Part shown: positions 20,583 through 36,840 of the stretch, piece by piece | Position numbering within the stretch: the first letter of the stretch is position 1 | How the letters are laid out: each line of letters begins with the position of its first letter | NCBI GenBank assembly: GCA_963931545.1 | Contig: OZ007025.1 | Span: forward strand, 887,692 to 951,691 | Length of the DNA: 64,000 nucleotides | Origin: an uncultured Bacilli bacterium | GTDB lineage: Bacteria > Bacillota_I > Bacilli_A > RF39 > UBA660 | Reading direction: 5' to 3' | Translations under genes and position numbers: made by a program | The notes under the pieces: model-generated | Databases searched by the model: none | What the model was told of the DNA's origin: nothing | What the model saw: only the letters and a program-made list of their open reading frames with translations

Positions 20583-23500
20583 TTATCCTCTATTAGTGTA
20601 TGAATAAGTTGTTCCTCTTAAAATCATTTCTAATGCATCTACTCCATATGGTTTACCATCGGTAGATAACATTTGAAATCCTAAATAGTAATTTCCTTTT
20701 AATGATGATATATTTAAATTGAAATTTCTACTTTCTCCATCGGCAATCGTACTACTACTAATTTGATTACTCTGTGCATGTACCCATGCATTTTGACCAG
20801 CACTTTGTGGTATAACAGCTAATATATTTGTTCCTGTTCCCCAAGGAGATGCATGATGCATTGGTATATATCTAACATATAATGTACTATAATCTGTTAA
20901 ATCAAATAAATTTTGTGATGTTAACTGACTTCTGACAGGACGAGTGTCTGTATGAGCCATAGTTAAATAATACTTATGTGAAGTAGCCCATACTGGATGT
21001 TTATCAATTTCTGCTTGTGAAGCATATACATTCCAAGTAGGTGCCCAAGCATTTGTATCATATCTACTTAACCAAGCCGTAGATGAATCTGTAACATCTA
21101 ATTTAAATACCGTATAATCACTTTTTCGCCAACTAGGATAAATAATTGCAGAACTATTGCAACCACCCATAGTTCCTATTTTTACTGTTGTACCACTACT
21201 TATGGTATGTGTACTATTACCACATACTACTGTTGCTCCTGCATATGAAAATCCACTAGATGGTGATGTTGTAAATGTAATGTTTTCTCCATTTATTGAT
21301 TTATTTTTTGATAATTTTATACTTCCGCCTCTTACTGTACCTACTGATATTGATGTTATTCCACTAACTGTATAACTACTACTCATTGTTCCATTTTCAT
21401 CAGTTACTTTGGCTTCTATATTTCCATTTTTATCAAAATTTACATCTACTATATTTGAGGTTACTTCTACTATTTCTCCATTATCTTTTTGATATGTACA
21501 TGTTCTTGTAGAGCCACATCCTGATGGATATACTACAGTAACTGTCTTTCCATCACTTTTTATAGTTTCTCTAAACGATATATTTCCTGGATTTTCATAG
21601 GAATATGTTTGACATAGTAATCTCGCATAATTTATATTACAAGAATTATCTTTTCCATTTGTCAATATTTCTTGGATTGCAAAATAATAGTCGCCACTTA
21701 ATTTTGTTATATCACTTGTTATACTTTTTCCATTTGTTGCATTTGTACCAGCCATACTAACCTCTACCGATGTTGATAAATTTTAAGCCAATCATTTTTA
21801 GTTTTTGTTGGTCCTATAAACATTACTCCACCATTGGTACACCAAGCCATTATTTGATATGACTTGTAATTATCTACATTTATTGTTCTTGAAGTTGATA
21901 TTTGATTTCTAGAAGCTCCTTGTGTATGTTGAATATTCGCGTAATATTTATTACCTCCTGAATCAGCACTTGTCGTATAATCCAAAAATGTTCCTTTTAA
22001 TCCATCATATTTAGTAAACTCCCATGGGATGCTTGCAGGAGTACTATTCAAATAGAAAAGATTATAATCATTACATTTCCATGATGGGTATACTATTGCT
22101 GAAGCACAATTTTTATCAGCTATTGAAAATGTTTTAGTACTTGCTCCTATTTTATATTTTGTTCCATTTTGACAAATTATTGTTGACCCTTGATATTTAA
22201 ATGTACTATCTGGAGTATCTGTAATACTTATTACTTCATCATCTATTGCTACTTCTTTTGATAGACTTATACTTCCTCCTTTTATATCTCCTGCTTGTAA
22301 TTTTGTTATTCCTGTTACATTATAAGAATTGTTTACACTATTTGTTCCATCTGTTACTGTTGCTATTACACTTCCATTCATTGTAAATGATACATTTGCT
22401 TTTGTACTATTTACTTCTACTACTGTTTCACTATCTTTTTGATAGGTACATGTTAATGTGCTTCCACATCCAGATGGATATGTTATAGTAACTGTTTTTC
22501 CTTCATTATTTGCACTTTCACTAAAGGTTGGTGCTACTAAACTAGTTGTTTTTACTTCTTTTGTTTCTGTTGTTGTTTTACCACTTTTTGATGTTACTCT
22601 AACTTCTACTGTATAACTTGTTCCTTGATTTAGATTTGTAAAATTATGAGTGGTACTAGTATTGCCATCTATCCAATTTCCACCATTTATTCTATATTCA
22701 TATTTAGTTATTCCACTATCAGCTTGGGCATTTGATACTACGGTTATACTATTGGTTGTACTTGTAGTTGATATGCTTAAACTTATATTATCTACTTTAA
22801 CTTTTGAAGTTAGTGTTGTATTACTACTAACTGTATATTTATTATTTGGATTTCCTACTTTAGAACTTCCACTATACCATCCATCTATTATATAGCCTTT
22901 ATTAGGGGTTATGGTTGGTAAGGTTATTTCACATTCTGTTTCTCTATTATATATTGTACATATATCACTATTTTTTCCTATACTTTCTATATTGCTTCCT
23001 TTGTTATAGGTTACTTTTATTTCTTTTTTATAGATAGCATACAAGGTACTTGTTCCGACCGGCATTTGATATTCTGTTAGTCCTACTAAGGCATCTTTAT
23101 CGGTATTTCAGCCTACAAATGTCCATCCATTTTTGTAGGCTTTAATATTTAAATCTACTTTACTTCCACTTGTTAGATATTCTCCTTCACTATCGGTTCT
23201 TTCTCCTCCATTTGTTTTATAATCATAGGTTAATAGATATGTACTTGGGGCTTCTGGGTCTTTATTTTCTTGAGTATATTCAAATTCTATTTCTACTTCA
23301 CTTGAAGTTGGCTCTCCATCATAGTTTGGATTATATTCTATTTTTACATGAACTAATTTACTTTTTCCATGTTCTAAGACTTCTCCTTTGGTATATCCTG
23401 AGAAGGTTATTATTACCGCTTCACTATTTGAGTTTTGGGTATTTGTTAATATATCATTTAGTTTAGCATCTAAGGTCCCTCTATTTTCTATGGTTACATC

Positions 23501-23760
23501 ATATTCCATGGCATCGCCTTTTTTATACAAATCGGCTTCCATTGAGGCTGTTAAGGTGGTCCATGATGGTTTTACTGTATTTTTGGCACTTCCTGTTGGA
23601 GTTCCATCTGTAACATTAGTTATTCTTATATCCCAGTTACTAGTTACTTTTGAAGTTCCTGATATCTTTAATTCGGTATTAAATGCGGCATAGCCTATAA
23701 CCATACATAATAGTACTCTTATTAAGCTTAATATTATTATATTTCTTTTTTTTCCCTCTA
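20583..23760 (-). pseudogene. Large surface protein gene (SipW/TasA-type signal, Fn3-like module, two tandem 250-aa modules), disrupted copy A
   Basis: By comparison with the 97%-identical copy B, this gene is split into three ORFs (23108-23704, 21764-23065, 20583-21755). The causes are a frameshift in an A8 tract at 23746-23753, a TGG-to-TGA change at 23108-23110 and a +1 frameshift near 21757. Confidence 0.55.
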
Positions 23761-23885
23761 TGCATATTATTCACCAATTATATTATACCCCCCCATGAAA
23801 ATTTCAAGTTTTTTAATACAAAAGTAAAAAAAGAAACAAGGTTTTACACTTATTTCTTTATTTGGGGGTGGTGGGGGTATTTATT
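22695..23885. repeat. 1.2 kb direct repeat (copy A) shared with 35633-36840, 12.9 kb apart
   Basis: The near-identical DNA covers the 5' part of the surface-protein gene plus 180 bp of upstream region. A second shorter shared block is 20761-20855 versus 35518-35610. Confidence 0.8.
23788..23868 (-). promoter_or_regulatory. Promoter region of surface-protein copy A with a homopolymeric tract (C7 on + strand, G7 on coding strand) abutting TATAAT, plus the G-rich motif GGGGGTGGTGGGGG
   Basis: On the coding strand the sequence reads TTGAAA-ttttcat-G7-TATAAT, about 25 nt before the ATG. A G-rich block lies at 23855-23868. Confidence 0.35.
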
Positions 23886-25361: not shown

Positions 25362-25829
25362 TTAATAATCCCATTTAACTATTGCATTTTTAGCTCCCCA
25401 TGGACTTTTATTTATTTGATTAGGTGGTGTTTGAATATAAAATGTTATACCATCATTTTCATTAAATGAAGTAGAATCTATTTCTACGATGTTAGATTTT
25501 ATAGTAATATTTATTATTTTTTTATTGTTAAACGCATTAGGTCCTATGGCATCTATGGTTTGACCATTTAAACTTTCTGGAATAAAAACTGTTTTATCAC
25601 ATGTATCACTATAGTTAGTTATTGTTAAATTATTTCTACTATTTGTTTCTACGGTAAAACATGTTGGGTTTGTAGTTAGTGTTTGAACATCGTTTAAAAC
25701 ACTTTCTTTTATTTTATCATTAGCTAGTTTTCTATTTCCTAAAATGGATACCGTTTCTAAAACTAATATTAAAAATAAAGATAAAATTCCATATAATAAA
25801 GCTGATGTTATAAAACCTTTATTGTTCAT
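25362..25829 (-). CDS. Small exported protein with a prepilin-like N-terminus and BspA-type leucine-rich repeats
   Basis: The N-terminus MNNKGFITSALLYGILSLFLIL is a class III signal-like sequence that lacks Glu at +5. The C-terminal repeats (FIPESLNGQTIDAIGPNAFNN..ITI) are LRR_5-like. Confidence 0.3.
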   Translation of the reverse strand: MNNKGFITSALLYGILSLFLILVLETVSILGNRKLANDKIKESVLNDVQTLTTNPTCFTVETNSRNNLTITNYSDTCDKTVFIPESLNGQTIDAIGPNAFNNKKIINITIKSNIVEIDSTSFNENDGITFYIQTPPNQINKSPWGAKNAIVKWDY

Positions 25830-26085: not shown

Positions 26086-26988
26086 TTATTCTGCTCTATT
26101 TTTAGACTCTTTTGGTAAAATAAGCATTTCTGTTTTGTAGATTTTATCTATCATTTTACTTATTTTTTTACAATTTATATATTCGGAATCATCAAAATTA
26201 ACAAGGTCGATTTGTGATATTAAAATAAATAATAATTCTTTTTCTTCTTTTAAAAGAGGATAAATATTTTCATATTCATTTAATATTGTTTTAAAATCAA
26301 ATTCTAATGCATGATTTTGATAAAGTTTATATAAATCAAAAATGGGACTACCAATTTTAGATTTATCCCAACTAACTAAATACGATGTATCAGATTCTAA
26401 AAAATGTTCTAATTTTAAATTGTTATGAAGAACAACCCTTCGTTCTTTTCTTTTTTCTTTAATGTTTTCGTGCCAATAATCTAATCTTTTTTTATTTTCA
26501 CTTATAGTATCATATATTTTTGTAATATTTCTAGCTAATAACAATTCACTTGGACTCATATATACTTTAGATTCAATTATAGTTATTAAATCGGTATAGT
26601 ATATATATAAATAATTTAAGTTATTATCTAAATCTTCATATATTTTTTCATAATAATCTAAGTCAATTTCTTTATAATGAGTGGTTTTGCTATGTAATAA
26701 AGCTACTAATTTTATTAAATCTAAAATTTTTTGTTCTTTTGGAATATTTAAATCTTCAATATAATTAGTAAGTTGATATGATTCATCTTGATTATTTAAA
26801 AAAAAAGGTAAATAATCAAAACTGCGAGATTTTAAGTAATTTAAAATTTGCGGGTTTATCTTACCTTCTTTATATATATATTTTCCTTTATTTGTATTTA
26901 TTACAATTGTTTTACCTTTCTTTTTATATTCTCTAGCAATAATACCTTTACTTTTTAAAATTTGATTAATTTTCATAATTTGGAACAA
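26086..26988 (-). CDS. CotS/YsxE-family spore-coat kinase-like protein
   Basis: The phosphotransferase-fold motif VLHNNLKLEHFL is a degenerate form of HGDLxxxN. The gene sits directly downstream of a LysM SpoVID-like gene, matching the B. subtilis spoVID-ysxE arrangement. Confidence 0.45.
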   Translation of the reverse strand: MFQIMKINQILKSKGIIAREYKKKGKTIVINTNKGKYIYKEGKINPQILNYLKSRSFDYLPFFLNNQDESYQLTNYIEDLNIPKEQKILDLIKLVALLHSKTTHYKEIDLDYYEKIYEDLDNNLNYLYIYYTDLITIIESKVYMSPSELLLARNITKIYDTISENKKRLDYWHENIKEKRKERRVVLHNNLKLEHFLESDTSYLVSWDKSKIGSPIFDLYKLYQNHALEFDFKTILNEYENIYPLLKEEKELLFILISQIDLVNFDDSEYINCKKISKMIDKIYKTEMLILPKESKNRAE

Positions 26989-27571
26989 TTAATTTATCGC
27001 CTATTTTAAGATCATTTAAATCATTATAAGCTTCTAATTCTTCTTTATTTATTTCATATTTTTGAAGAATTGAATCAATAGTATCATTTTCTGTAACAAC
27101 ATGTACTTTATAGACTGAATACCTTTCATTTTCATCAAAACTATCAAAGAGATTTTTTGTATCTATATTTTGATTATTTTCTATATCTGCTTCTTCACGT
27201 TCATCTAATATTTCTATTTTTTCTTCTGGCAAAACGACTATCTCTTTTTCTTCTAAGTTGTCTAAAGAAACTTCTATATTAATTGAAAGTATTTCATTAT
27301 TAATGACTTCATAATAAAAATCATTGATATCCACTATTACATTATTTGTATTATATTTTTTATCAATACTAATATCAAATGGCAATTTATATTCGAATGA
27401 ATCAACATTCAAACTAGCTTCAGTCATTTTATAAGTTCCACTAATAATAAATTCACCTGAAACCAAATTATCTTCTTTTAGCGCTAGAGTATGCTCTAAT
27501 GATATACTATTAATTTCAAAGATATTGTTATTAAAATCAATATCTTTTTTAAATGGCACTATTTTTTTCAT
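26966..27571 (-). CDS. SpoVID/SipL-like protein (SPOCS-like N-terminal domain plus C-terminal LysM)
   Basis: A C-terminal LysM domain (DTIDSILQKYEINKEELEAYNDLNDLKIGDKLIVP) follows an N-terminal region resembling the SpoVID N-domain. The gene is coupled to the CotS-like gene. Confidence 0.4.
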   Translation of the reverse strand: MKKIVPFKKDIDFNNNIFEINSISLEHTLALKEDNLVSGEFIISGTYKMTEASLNVDSFEYKLPFDISIDKKYNTNNVIVDINDFYYEVINNEILSINIEVSLDNLEEKEIVVLPEEKIEILDEREEADIENNQNIDTKNLFDSFDENERYSVYKVHVVTENDTIDSILQKYEINKEELEAYNDLNDLKIGDKLIVPNYEN

Positions 27572-33151: not shown

Positions 33152-33997
33152 TTATTCTTTTAAAAGTTCTTCTAATGATTTAATATTATATCCCTTAGAG
33201 GTTATATAATTTAATATGACTTCTATTTGGCTATTTAATTCACTGTTTGCATCTAAAGATATTATTGAACCTGGTAATATTTGTTTTTTTATGTTTAAAT
33301 ATGGTTTATTTTTAATTATTATTTGAGGCATGATAGTTATTGAATTTTGAATAGAACATATTTTCAATATTTTTTTATTTGGTTTTTCGGTATAACAGTA
33401 GTTATATATTTGTGGACCTATATTAGTTATAATTGTTTTCATCCAGATAAAATCACTATCTTCATAATCTTCATTATTACTTAAATTACCTATGGTATGA
33501 CCATTTTGAACTAATTTTATGATTTGATTATGATGTTTTTCCAAATATTTACTTTCAATAAAGAAAGTTGCTTTGACTTTTTTTACTTCTAATAGTTTAA
33601 TAATGTTTGTTATGTCATTATTATTACCTACTTTAAAAAGTAAGGTTACATCCATTTTAGTATTGTTACCATTAATTACATATTTATCTTTATTTTTATC
33701 TAAAGTGTTTTCTACTTTTAAAGGCTTATAAACCAATAATTTATCATTAAAATAACCAATCTTACTCATAGCTTCATAACTTTTATTTACATCTACTTCT
33801 TTACCATTTATTCCTGGGATTATAGTATCTTCATTAATTATTGGTTCAATGGCATTTTCTTTATAACCGTCTTTTTTACTTTTAATTTCGGTAAGTAATG
33901 TATCAGTTAGTTTAGCTGTTGTTCCTACTTTTTCAGTATATATAAAGCTACCCACCATAAGGGTTAGTATACCAACCATTTGAAAGAATTTTTTCAT
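33152..33997 (-). CDS. Polysaccharide deacetylase (NodB-homology) with N-terminal membrane anchor
   Basis: A NodB-like block (VTLLFKVGNNN...ATFFIES...NGHTIGNLS) and an N-terminal TM helix are present. Confidence 0.55.
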   Translation of the reverse strand: MKKFFQMVGILTLMVGSFIYTEKVGTTAKLTDTLLTEIKSKKDGYKENAIEPIINEDTIIPGINGKEVDVNKSYEAMSKIGYFNDKLLVYKPLKVENTLDKNKDKYVINGNNTKMDVTLLFKVGNNNDITNIIKLLEVKKVKATFFIESKYLEKHHNQIIKLVQNGHTIGNLSNNEDYEDSDFIWMKTIITNIGPQIYNYCYTEKPNKKILKICSIQNSITIMPQIIIKNKPYLNIKKQILPGSIISLDANSELNSQIEVILNYITSKGYNIKSLEELLKE

Positions 33998-34099: not shown

Positions 34100-34324
34100 A
34101 TGAATGGACAGTTTTATGACTATAGGCAACCTATGCGCCCTAACGGTCCACGTCCAGGAAGGCCTGGTAGACCACCTGGTGGGCCTAACCAAGGCGGATT
34201 TTTAGGCCCATTTATTTTAGGGGGAATTACTGGAGGACTTATTTCTCCATTATTCTGGGGTAATAACCGACCTATATATTATCCTTATTATCCACCATAC
34301 GGTCCTTATCCATATTGGCGCTAA
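34100..34324 (+). CDS. Small Pro/Gly/Tyr-rich protein with central hydrophobic segment
   Basis: A GC-rich 225-bp ORF in an AT-rich genome. It has an RBS-like GAAGGGGG and an extremely biased composition (PGRPGRPPGGPNQGG...YYPYYPPYGPYPYW). Confidence 0.35.
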   Translation: MNGQFYDYRQPMRPNGPRPGRPGRPPGGPNQGGFLGPFILGGITGGLISPLFWGNNRPIYYPYYPPYGPYPYWR

Positions 34325-35399: not shown

Positions 35400-36720
35400 T
35401 AAAATTAAATACCTCTATTATAATATGAATAGGTCGTGCCACCTCTAAGCGCTATTTGTGTAAAGTCGACTCCATATGGTCTTCCACTTGTTGCTAACAT
35501 CTGAACTTGTAGTAGCACTAACTTGATTGCTCTGTCCCTGTACCCATGCATTTTGACCAGCACTTTGTGGTATAACGGCTAATATATTTGTTCCTGTTCC
35601 GCCAGATATACTTGTGTGTTTCATTATCTATACTATATTCATATTTAGTTATTCCACTATCAGCTTGGGCATTTGATACTACGGTTATACTATTGGTTGT
35701 ACTTGTAGTTGATATGCTTAAACTTATATTATCTACTTTAACTTTTGAAGTTAGTGTTGTATTACTACTAACTGTATATTTATCATCTGGATTTCCTACT
35801 TTAGAACTTCCACTATACCATCCATCTATTATATAGCCTTTATTAGGGGTTATGGTTGGTAAGGTTATTTCACATTCTGTTTCTCTATTATAAATAGTAC
35901 ATGTTTCATTATTTTTTCCTATACTTTCTATATTACTTCCTTTGTTATAGGTTACTTTTATTTCTTTTTTATAGATAGCATATAAGGTACTTGTTCCGAC
36001 TGGCATTTGATATTCTGTTAGTCCTACTAAGGCATCTTTATCGGTATTCCAGCCTACAAATGTCCAGCCATTTTTGTAGGCTTTAATATTTAAATCTACT
36101 TTACTTCCACTTGTTAGATATTCTCCTTCACTATCGGTTCTTTCTCCTCCATTTGTTTTATAATCATAGGTTAATAGATATGTACTTGGGGCTTCTGGGT
36201 CTTTATTTTCTTGAGTATATTCAAATTCTATTTCTACTTCACTTGAAGTTGGCTCTCCTTCATAGTTTGGATTATATTCTATTTTTACATGAACTAATTT
36301 ACTTTTTCCATGTTCTAAGACTTCTCCTTTGGTATATCCTGAGAAGGTTATTATTACCGCTTCACTATTTGAGTTTTGGGTATTTGTTAATATATCATTT
36401 AGTTTAGCATCTAAGGTCCCTCTATTTTCTATGGTTACATCACATTCCATGGCATCGCCTTTTTCATACAAATCGGCTTCCATTGAGGCTGTTAAGGTGG
36501 TCCATGATGGTTTTACTGTATTTTTGGCACTTCCTGTTGGAGTTCCATCTGTGACATTAGTTATTCTTATATCCCAGTTACTAGTTACTTTTGAAGTTCC
36601 TGAGATTTTTAATTCGGTATTAAATGTGGCATAGCCTACCACCATACATAGTAGTATTCCTACTAAACTTAATATTATTATATTTCTTTTCTTTTTCCCT
36701 CTATGCATATTATTCACCAA
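35400..36720 (-). pseudogene. Truncated/internally deleted paralog (copy B) of the surface-protein gene
   Basis: The 5' 1.1 kb is 97% identical to copy A. After the equivalent of A position 22695 the sequence jumps to a block matching A 20855-20761 and then to a diverged 3' end. This deletes about 1.8 kb and leaves a short out-of-frame tail. Confidence 0.5.
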
Positions 36721-36840
36721 TTATATTATACTCCCCCCCCCCCACCATGAAAATTTCAAGTTTTTTTAATACAAAAGTAAAAAAAGAAACAAGGTTTTAC
36801 ACTTATTTCTTTATTTGGGGGTGGCGGGGGTATTTATTTT
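35633..36840. repeat. 1.2 kb direct repeat (copy B) of 22695-23885
   Basis: See the copy A repeat entry. Confidence 0.8.
36733..36830 (-). promoter_or_regulatory. Promoter region of copy B with homopolymeric tract C11 (G11 on coding strand) next to TATAAT, plus the G-rich motif GGGGGTGGCGGGGG
   Basis: On the coding strand the sequence reads TTGAAA-ttttcatggt-G11-ag-TATAAT. A G-rich block lies at 36817-36830. The tract length differs from copy A (11 versus 7). Confidence 0.35.

Follow-up and report, generated by a model that had tools for sequence, protein, structure and literature searches.

Probable stepwise decay of a modular surface-protein gene, and polymorphic poly-G promoter tracts in its family, in an uncultured RF39 bacterium

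Introduction

Phase variation through a homopolymer in the promoter spacer is known from Neisseria, where a poly-G tract in porA and a poly-C tract in opc lie between the −35-like and −10 boxes, and from Mycoplasma hyorhinis, where a poly-A tract takes this position in the multigene vlp surface family, while antigenic variation by gene conversion from silent cassettes is known from vlhA of Mycoplasma synoviae, MgPar of M. genitalium and pilE/pilS of Neisseria. In a further kind of switch, represented by the poly-A tract of Vaa in M. hominis and the poly-G tract of pili in Bifidobacterium breve (PMC9187656), the homopolymer lies in the first codons of the surface gene and sets its reading frame; the repeats of Neisseria have been reviewed (PMC5320596). 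Here we examine a broken surface-protein gene, called gene A below (positions 20583–23765, minus strand), together with its paralogues and their promoters, in a 64-kb stretch of DNA from an uncultured Bacilli bacterium of the RF39 lineage (contig OZ007025.1 of assembly GCA_963931545.1, positions 887,692–951,691). This whole stretch is referred to as the window, its coordinates are used throughout, and the features of gene A and of copy B, a paralogue, are on the minus strand.

RF39 is an abundant gut lineage that is known only from metagenomes and has reduced genomes, and Candidatus Coprosoma has been so described (PMC8035907). Full-text literature searching returned no paper on phase variation in RF39 or on the poly-G system reported here. 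Gene A is very probably a recently inactivated, progressively decaying pseudogene that has taken several hits and belongs to a large, fast-evolving family of modular surface proteins. As a pseudogene it is routine; of more value is the promoter cassette with a poly-G tract and a C-rich element (C-box) that was found at the level of the family.

Organization of Gene A and Its Orthologues

Three minus-strand open reading frames (ORFs) lie in a row within 3.2 kb, at 23108–23704 (198 aa), 21764–23065 (433 aa) and 20583–21755 (390 aa). Six-frame translation showed them to be parts of one continuous protein with three interruptions, read from an ATG at 23765–23763, upstream of which the sequence TATAATATAATTGGTGAATAAT holds a GGTGA ribosome-binding site (23771–23775, by direct reading). 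The repaired product is 1061 aa long. An earlier first-pass annotation, made from the letters of the sequence, had proposed a single large surface-protein gene split into three ORFs, and both the translation and the single-frame orthologues bear this out. It put the whole protein at about 1050 aa, which is close, but its estimate for the two C-terminal modules, 250 aa, was too low, as they measure 314 and 337 aa. For annotation, a single pseudogene entry should take the place of the three ORFs.

When the repaired protein was searched against the database, 365 homologues were retrieved, the nearest cluster of which consists of 1038–1040-aa proteins from five other contigs. The distribution of the lesions was compared among six orthologues including that of the window; the sister loci are L001 and L003–L006, all of which keep the gene order of the window (obg, the gene A orthologue, PBP5, ZnuA), and L002 is a window-identical stretch. 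The gene is intact in L003, L004 and L006, where it forms one open frame of 1059–1061 codons from an ATG that is preceded by a ribosome-binding site. The ratio of nonsynonymous to synonymous substitution rates (dN/dS) among the orthologues is 0.09–0.56, which shows purifying selection on the gene in the rest of the species.

Lesions and Their Distribution Among Strains

The first lesion is a run of eight adenines at 23746–23753 (context GGG-A8-G), aligned with AAAAAGAAAAG (GGG-A5-G-A4-G) in copy B, a paralogue at about 35405–36708 of the window. The A8 tract covers Lys/Arg codons 5–7 in the n-region of the putative signal anchor, is 2 nt shorter than the tract of copy B, and causes the frame to be lost after MHRGKKK, whereas A7 or A10 at this position would put the gene A start back in frame. 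The second lesion is a TGA at 23108–23110 in the GW motif of the first InlB B-repeat, where copy B and 5/5 orthologous contigs have TGG (Trp). The third, located via an orthologous contig, is a single-base deletion: a C is missing between 21785 and 21784, which changes CTTCAAAAT to CTTAAAAT and yields a TAG at 21764–21766, 20 nt downstream of the deletion. In addition, AGA (Arg) replaces GGA (Gly) at 23719–23721, in the middle of the hydrophobic helix, in those strains that carry A8, while all in-frame orthologues and paralogues have GGA.

The first two lesions had been recognized by comparison with copy B, and the alignments upheld both, the nonsense codon also against the orthologous contigs. 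As a reference, copy B does carry the TGG and an in-frame tract, but it is itself a deletion remnant rather than an intact copy. A further frameshift, which had been placed near 21757 between the last two modules, turned out to be real but to lie elsewhere, as the 1-nt deletion at 21784/21785 falls within module 1.

The window, L001, L002 and L005 are the only carriers of A8, of a G7 tract in the promoter and of the Arg codon. The window, L001 and L005 have 100% identity in obg and PBP5 (2.46 kb), and L002, taken from a hifiasm contig, agrees with the window throughout its 7.3 kb; therefore these strains represent one clonal lineage. The length of A8 is invariant in the four assemblies of this lineage, which come from both Illumina SPAdes and HiFi hifiasm data. 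In L003, L004, L006, the copy B locus and a paralogue locus (L080, L081), a G interrupts the tract and the frame is kept (A5GA4G or A2GA7G), and about 60 other family loci are also in frame at this point, with varied runs of Lys/Arg codons that include an uninterrupted A7.

By contrast, of the six orthologues only that of the window has the TGA and lacks the C. In L001 and L005, A8 is the sole frame-disrupting lesion and the 1040 downstream codons are open. The changes unique to the window comprise one nonsense, one frameshift, five nonsynonymous and three synonymous changes, which are small counts, against none in the 2.46 kb of flanking sequence relative to L001 and L005. The 433-aa and 390-aa products have exact matches on 9–10 contigs of 0.2 to >1 Mb, and the TGA and the deleted C are present on 9 contigs, so that neither is an assembly error. 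The three lesions of gene A are genuine and not artefacts. A reading of the TGA as Trp under genetic code 4, considered for a lineage once classed with the Tenericutes, was ruled out because TGA ends eight other long ORFs of the window, with further stops after each; the standard bacterial code is therefore used.

Progressive Inactivation and Its Alternatives

The order of events we infer from which strains share which change, and expression of gene A has presumably been lost. In a first stage, within one clonal lineage, the G tract of the promoter would have shortened to G7, and 2 nt would have been lost from the run of Lys codons to give A8 and the frameshift after codon 7; the Gly-to-Arg change would then have arisen in a helix that was by now untranslated. 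In a second stage, in the window strain, the TGG-to-TGA change, the 1-nt deletion and several mostly nonsynonymous substitutions would have followed. Since the TGA and the deleted C lie outside any repeat, slippage at A8 alone cannot restore the window copy. The first silencing may have struck a hypermutable tract, in which case the copy would be a contingency gene that was locked OFF and then lost, and this may well be so because the promoters of the family carry polymorphic poly-G spacers. A recent pseudogene was one of two alternatives offered by the first-pass annotation, and three lesions set against intact orthologues at the same locus favor it.

Several points weigh against inactivation and decay as set out above. 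In L001 and L005, low-frequency A7 or A10 variants, or transcriptional slippage on A8, may occur. The contrast with the flanks is statistically not decisive, as about two changes would be expected at the synonymous sites of the flanks and none was seen. Some of the changes may have come in as patches, by gene conversion from paralogues that were not sampled, instead of through neutral decay. Through its tandem −10 boxes, the promoter with G7 still has a 16-nt spacing from TTGAAA to TAATAT and thus cannot be declared dead. Finally, the assemblies of the A8 lineage all belong to one accession series (ERZ215494xx), which limits inference on the fixation of the lesions.

The other alternative of the first-pass annotation was a slipped-strand phase-variable gene sequenced in its OFF state. 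In the form considered here, slippage at A8, at G7 or at both would toggle an otherwise functional gene. The position of A8 within the first codons, where a contraction by one base to A7 brings the frame back, would fit such a switch, as would the open frame downstream of A8 in L001 and L005 and the clearly polymorphic G tracts in the promoters of the family. However, two of the three lesions are outside repeat tracts and fixed on 9 contigs, and slippage cannot revert them; an altered repeat length would by itself give back an intact gene in L001 and L005 but not in the window. Moreover, A8 is constant in four assemblies from two technologies, the other lineages and the copy B and paralogue loci have an interrupted, in-frame tract, the other family loci are in frame as well, and the Arg in the helix of the A8 lineage is what would be expected of a segment no longer translated. 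We therefore consider a reversible switch in gene A to be improbable. Compared with the coding-tract switches of M. hominis and B. breve, gene A has a homopolymer in the first codons of a surface gene that sets the frame, but its A8 is confined to one lineage, stems from a 2-nt loss in an interrupted tract, does not vary in length and is accompanied by irreversible lesions.

Long A runs cause RNA-polymerase slippage in AT-rich reduced genomes, and some full-length protein might be produced if the lesions were bypassed by slippage or +1 ribosomal frameshifting on A8, readthrough or recoding of the TGA, and a second frameshift. The persistence of A8 in L001 and L005, with the frame otherwise open, would be compatible with bypass. 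In the window, however, three independent recoding events would be needed, TGA acts as a terminator in the eight other genes, the site of the deleted C (CTT/AAAAT) is no known shift site, and closely related strains encode the conventional sequence. Bypass is thus very unlikely.

It is just as hard to credit that gene fission has turned the three ORFs into separate functional genes, even though each opens with an ATG and is at least 198 aa long. The second and third ORFs have no signal sequence, and direct reading found no Shine-Dalgarno-like sequence before their ATGs; the first starts from an internal ATG and so lacks the signal anchor. The ORF boundaries also cut through an InlB B-repeat and a jelly-roll domain, and the orthologues are single genes. 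Least likely of all is an intact gene that was misread in sequencing or misassembled. Homopolymers such as A8 and G7 are error-prone in long reads, but SPAdes (Illumina) and hifiasm contigs agree on both, and neither the TGA nor the deleted C is an error of the homopolymer type; the two recur on 9 contigs and in the identical 7.3-kb stretch.

The Predicted Protein

The intact protein would be a membrane-anchored and probably glycan-binding adhesin, judging from its sequence and a structure model. It begins with a basic n-region and a 20-residue hydrophobic helix, which looks like a signal anchor, and continues with an Ig-like beta-sandwich domain (starting between 23641 and 23612 and reaching to about 23270, by structure model and fold search), two Listeria-Bacteroides repeats (InlB B or Flg_new; 22793–23242, by Pfam and NCBIfam), an Fn3/Y_Y_Y-like domain (22541–22786, with Pfam scores below threshold) and two C-terminal modules. 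Module 1 (314 aa, 21597–22537), which contains the frameshift, consists of two small beta-sandwiches and a jelly roll, and module 2 (337 aa, 20586–21596) of two small beta-sandwiches and a jelly roll that resembles those of CBM, MAM and gingipain-adhesin domains. The two modules are about 35% identical, share an invariant GCGSTxTC motif and both close with a beta-jelly-roll of CBM/MAM-like fold. The first-pass annotation had the architecture broadly right in naming an N-terminal beta domain, an Fn3 domain and two tandem Cys-containing modules.

In the repaired protein, PF09479 matches two stretches with 26.7 bits, just under its cutoff of 27, and TIGR02543 of NCBIfam scores 18.6 bits against a cutoff of 20.95, while PF09479 is precomputed for nearly all homologues. 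Across the 365 homologues an N-terminus of about 300 aa is conserved and the C-termini vary (ricin lectin, leucine-rich repeats (LRR), DUF285), and members of the family were found in 'Firmicutes bacterium CAG:822', 'Candidatus Coprosoma' and related metagenome-assembled genomes (MAGs), by which the organism is assigned to family CAG-822 of the GTDB order RF39 (PMC8035907). The protein of gene A resembles the InlB B-repeat surface proteins of Bacillota in its two repeats with GW..GWNT, after which NCBI names the homologues 'InlB B-repeat-containing protein', and in its modular surface architecture with Fn3 and lectin-like domains. In contrast to them it has no LPXTG, GW or SLH anchor, being apparently anchored by the N-terminal helix, its C-terminal modules of about 320 aa match no Pfam or NCBIfam family, and its PF09479 score stays below threshold.

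The label of a TasA-type protein with a SipW signal, given by the first-pass annotation, found no support. Neither the full protein nor N-terminal fragments matched Peptidase_M73/TasA (Pfam) or TIGR04088 (NCBIfam) even at E<=10, and TasA is absent from the top 50–60 matches listed by Foldseek against the Protein Data Bank (PDB) for the model (predicted local distance difference test (pLDDT) score 74), the best of which, with an E of 7e-3, is an archaeal pilin. No S-x-S-M-x-P motif of signal peptidase I occurs in any real ORF of the window. On these hidden Markov model (HMM) and fold searches, a TasA-like fold or SipW signal was rejected; the N-terminus matches TIGR02184, the signal-anchor model of mollicute MspA/MIB, only weakly (15.8 bits, cutoff 25), and has another weak match among surface proteins of enterococci. 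Gene A shares with TasA and camelysin a beta-rich domain after the signal, and its GYA/AFNT, at the putative cleavage site, resembles TWA/AFND of TasA, which we take to be a superficial likeness. Apart from this, there is no HMM or structural match and no sipW-like gene nearby, and the hydrophobic segment looks like a membrane anchor.

A separate observation concerns the N-termini of the family entries. The database entries of the orthologues begin with MVIGYAAF, as the gene caller picked an internal ATG, and internal Met starts (MVVGYAAF...) recur in P0001, P0002, P0006, P0010 and P0123–P0126 and in about 30/120 homologues overall. The upstream ATG with its GGTGA ribosome-binding site is in frame at least in L003, L004, L006 and L083–L085. 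As read from these sequences, the internal starts are a systematic N-terminal mis-annotation, which strips the putative signal anchor from the family entries. We had considered widespread N-terminal frameshifting as their cause, and this was ruled out by the in-frame DNA of L003, L004 and L006.

Poly-G Tracts in the Promoters of the Family

The promoter of gene A carries a poly-G tract of 7 nt (G7, 23788–23794) between a TTGAAA box (23802–23807) and the tandem −10-like boxes TATAATATAAT (23777–23787), which are followed by the ribosome-binding site. That of copy B carries GGT-G11-AG (36733–36743). The tract of gene A had escaped the first-pass annotation. In the 64 kb of the window, which has a G+C content of 26.6%, these two tracts are the only G/C runs of at least 7 nt, and both lie between TTGAAA and TATAAT. 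We extended the promoter scan to 85 loci in 457 kb of related RF39-lineage DNA, in which 15/15 G/C runs of at least 8 nt precede a family gene and are flanked by a −35-like box on one side and a −10 box on the other. Of these runs, G13, G14 and G17 are in divergent species with different leaders (L045:2369, L051:93 and L054:2355).

The length of the tract spans 6–17 nt across the family. At the gene A locus it reads G7, G11, G11 and G12 in different strains; three paralogues in one genome have GGA-G12, GGA-G9 and GGGA-G9, and those in another MAG have G6, G11 and G12. One CAG:822 locus has G9, G9 and G8 in three assemblies that are otherwise identical over 2.2 kb, one of the assemblies having 3x coverage. 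As in the Neisseria and M. hyorhinis switches, the homopolymer thus sits between the −35-like and −10 boxes of a multigene surface family, and its length differs between paralogues, between strains and between otherwise identical sequences. Unlike those systems, the family has a conserved C-box 70 nt upstream, is known from sequence alone and belongs to an uncultured RF39 host. We know of no counterpart, in promoter-spacer switches, to a C-box about 70 nt upstream of the tract. Such a pattern is typical of a hypermutable tract in a promoter spacer. The polymorphism itself is what we claim, and by analogy it points to a putative promoter phase variation of family members.

The inferred spacers range from 13 to 23 nt, and the length of the G tract may have an effect on promoter activity. 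Owing to this range and to the tandem −10 boxes, the lengths that correspond to ON and OFF are unpredictable. With G7 in gene A, the spacing to the first TATAAT is 14 nt, from which we had read the promoter as dead, and this was dropped in view of the 16-nt spacing to TAATAT.

A second polymorphic homopolymer is present in this promoter, in the form of the A-run at 23808–23813 upstream of the −35 box, which is A6 in the window and in L001/L005, A7 in copy B, A9 in L003, A8G in L004, and A8 in L006 and L083–L085. The intact paralogue P0009, which is probably in the same genome as gene A, has an ordinary promoter without a G tract.

The C-Box and the 5′ Cassette

The window has two copies of the 12-nt C-box (CCCCRCCACCCC), against 0.02 expected. 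In gene A it lies at 23864–23877 (CCCCCACCACCCCC), at the 5′ edge of the repeated cassette, and in copy B at 36817–36830. It was found in 11/83 loci and also in L084 and L085, that is, in L001–L006, L026, L058–L060 and L083–L085, and it is absent from 72 loci. Every C-box is about 70 nt upstream of the G tract and at the exact 5′ edge of the sequence that the paralogues share, and this distance is maintained even between cassette types that differ in the sequence in between. A scan of Joint Genome Institute (JGI) metagenomes with the leader sequence returned only two relevant loci.

Between the C-box and the G tract lie a terminator-like hairpin, the A-run of variable length and the −35 box. 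The hairpin of gene A, which is AT-rich and followed by a T7 run (23826–23859), was predicted by folding; a terminator scan made no call on it, as its stem has too few G-C pairs. Single-strand folds pair the C-box with the G tract, but the z-scores are only −0.6 to −2.4, and we did not retain this stem as a functional structure. Nor does the upstream region match any Rfam family. An invertible promoter, with the C-box and the G tract as inverted repeats, is a remote prospect, since none of 17 cassettes is in inverted orientation and the segment of about 70 nt is very short.

Read in order, the cassette would consist of the C-box, about 70 nt with the terminator and the −35 box, a poly-G tract of 6–17 nt, tandem −10 boxes, the ribosome-binding site and a conserved N-terminal coding region of about 1.1 kb.

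Copy B and Rearrangement at the Shared 5′ Regions

In a blastn search of the gene A region against the window, copy B (35405–36708, gene start at 36708) showed 97% identity to gene A in its first 1.1 kb and 88% in some 100 nt of the tail. Its promoter, its N-terminus (in frame) and 1.1 kb of the coding region are preserved; about 1.84 kb of the interior and another 68 nt are deleted, and frameshifts disrupt the tail. The latter matches the tail of P0006, a family member of 719 aa that precedes the same DHH–deacetylase–parE block in a related genome. Copy B is thus the remnant of a P0006 orthologue and a second decayed member of the family, and it should be flagged as a remnant in annotation. 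In principle, gene conversion from copy B could repair the first two lesions of gene A, the third being outside the homology with copy B.

In the related genome (ENA ERZ21563605, contig_17959; L083, L084 and L085), P0002 lies between trmK and PBP5, P0006 before the block from DHH to obg, and P0051 after obg. In the window, trmK, copy B, the block from DHH to obg, gene A and PBP5 are contiguous, whereas the three corresponding pieces of the related genome are up to about 120 kb apart. Given that copy B joins trmK to the DHH–obg block and gene A joins obg to PBP5, the joints of the rearrangement lie in the shared 5′ cassettes. Gene A itself diverges by 0.35–0.8% among clonal strains with identical flanks, and by 2.6–5% between other strains with 0–0.7% in the flanks, and the differences are clustered in patches. 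At L082:2950-5224, a copy truncated at its 5′ end starts from ...LPTITPNKGY, has neither a promoter nor a signal sequence, and keeps a frame of about 740 codons open; it adjoins a divergent XRE-type helix-turn-helix (HTH) gene at an unrelated locus (tsaE/tsaD ... ABC transporter).

Like the silent-cassette systems of M. synoviae, M. genitalium and Neisseria, the family thus has full-length copies beside truncated (L082) and deleted (copy B) ones, paralogues with near-identical 5′ regions, clustered patches of difference between clonal strains and, in gene A, a divergence 5–10x that of the flanks. Unlike them, it has no demonstrated transfer from a donor to an expression site, and no single expression site. 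The truncated and deleted copies could equally be debris. Even so, the association of poly-G tracts with promoters, the conserved C-box and the mosaic, fast-diverging genes at rearrangement joints suggest, by analogy, a surface variation like that of mycoplasmas and Neisseria. We tentatively hypothesize, as a possibility rather than an expectation, that the portable 5′ cassette is a contingency system, in which slippage at the G tract would switch family members while the cassette would serve as a substrate for gene conversion and rearrangement, with the C-box or G-rich element perhaps acting as initiator. If this is true, RF39/CAG-822 gut bacteria would possess a system of antigenic or adhesive variation, of which gene A and copy B would be casualties and not random pseudogenes.

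Neighboring Genes

Between a CotS-like gene and obg lies a conserved ORF of 155 aa (25362–25829, minus strand), which every orthologous locus also has. Its N-terminus is hydrophobic and pilin-like (MNNKGFITSALLYGILSLFLILVLE), and it matches BspA-type LRRs below threshold (20.9 bits). On the plus strand, between the DHH and polysaccharide-deacetylase genes, a 74-aa ORF (34100–34324) is rich in Pro, Gly and Tyr (…PRPGRPGRPPGGPNQGG…YYPYYPPYGPYPYWR), a composition very unusual at 26.6% G+C, and a 74-aa gene was called at the same position in L084. Sporulation-type genes were found at 26086–27571, 33152–33997 and L080:10328-11239, in a reduced genome of about 1.36 Mb. The set comprises a SpoVID-N/LysM protein, a neighboring 300-aa ORF read as CotS-like for which no family match is recorded, a YlxY/PdaA-like deacetylase and SpoIID. 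As the genome also encodes PBP5 and FemAB, a cell wall, and perhaps spores, would seem to be retained.

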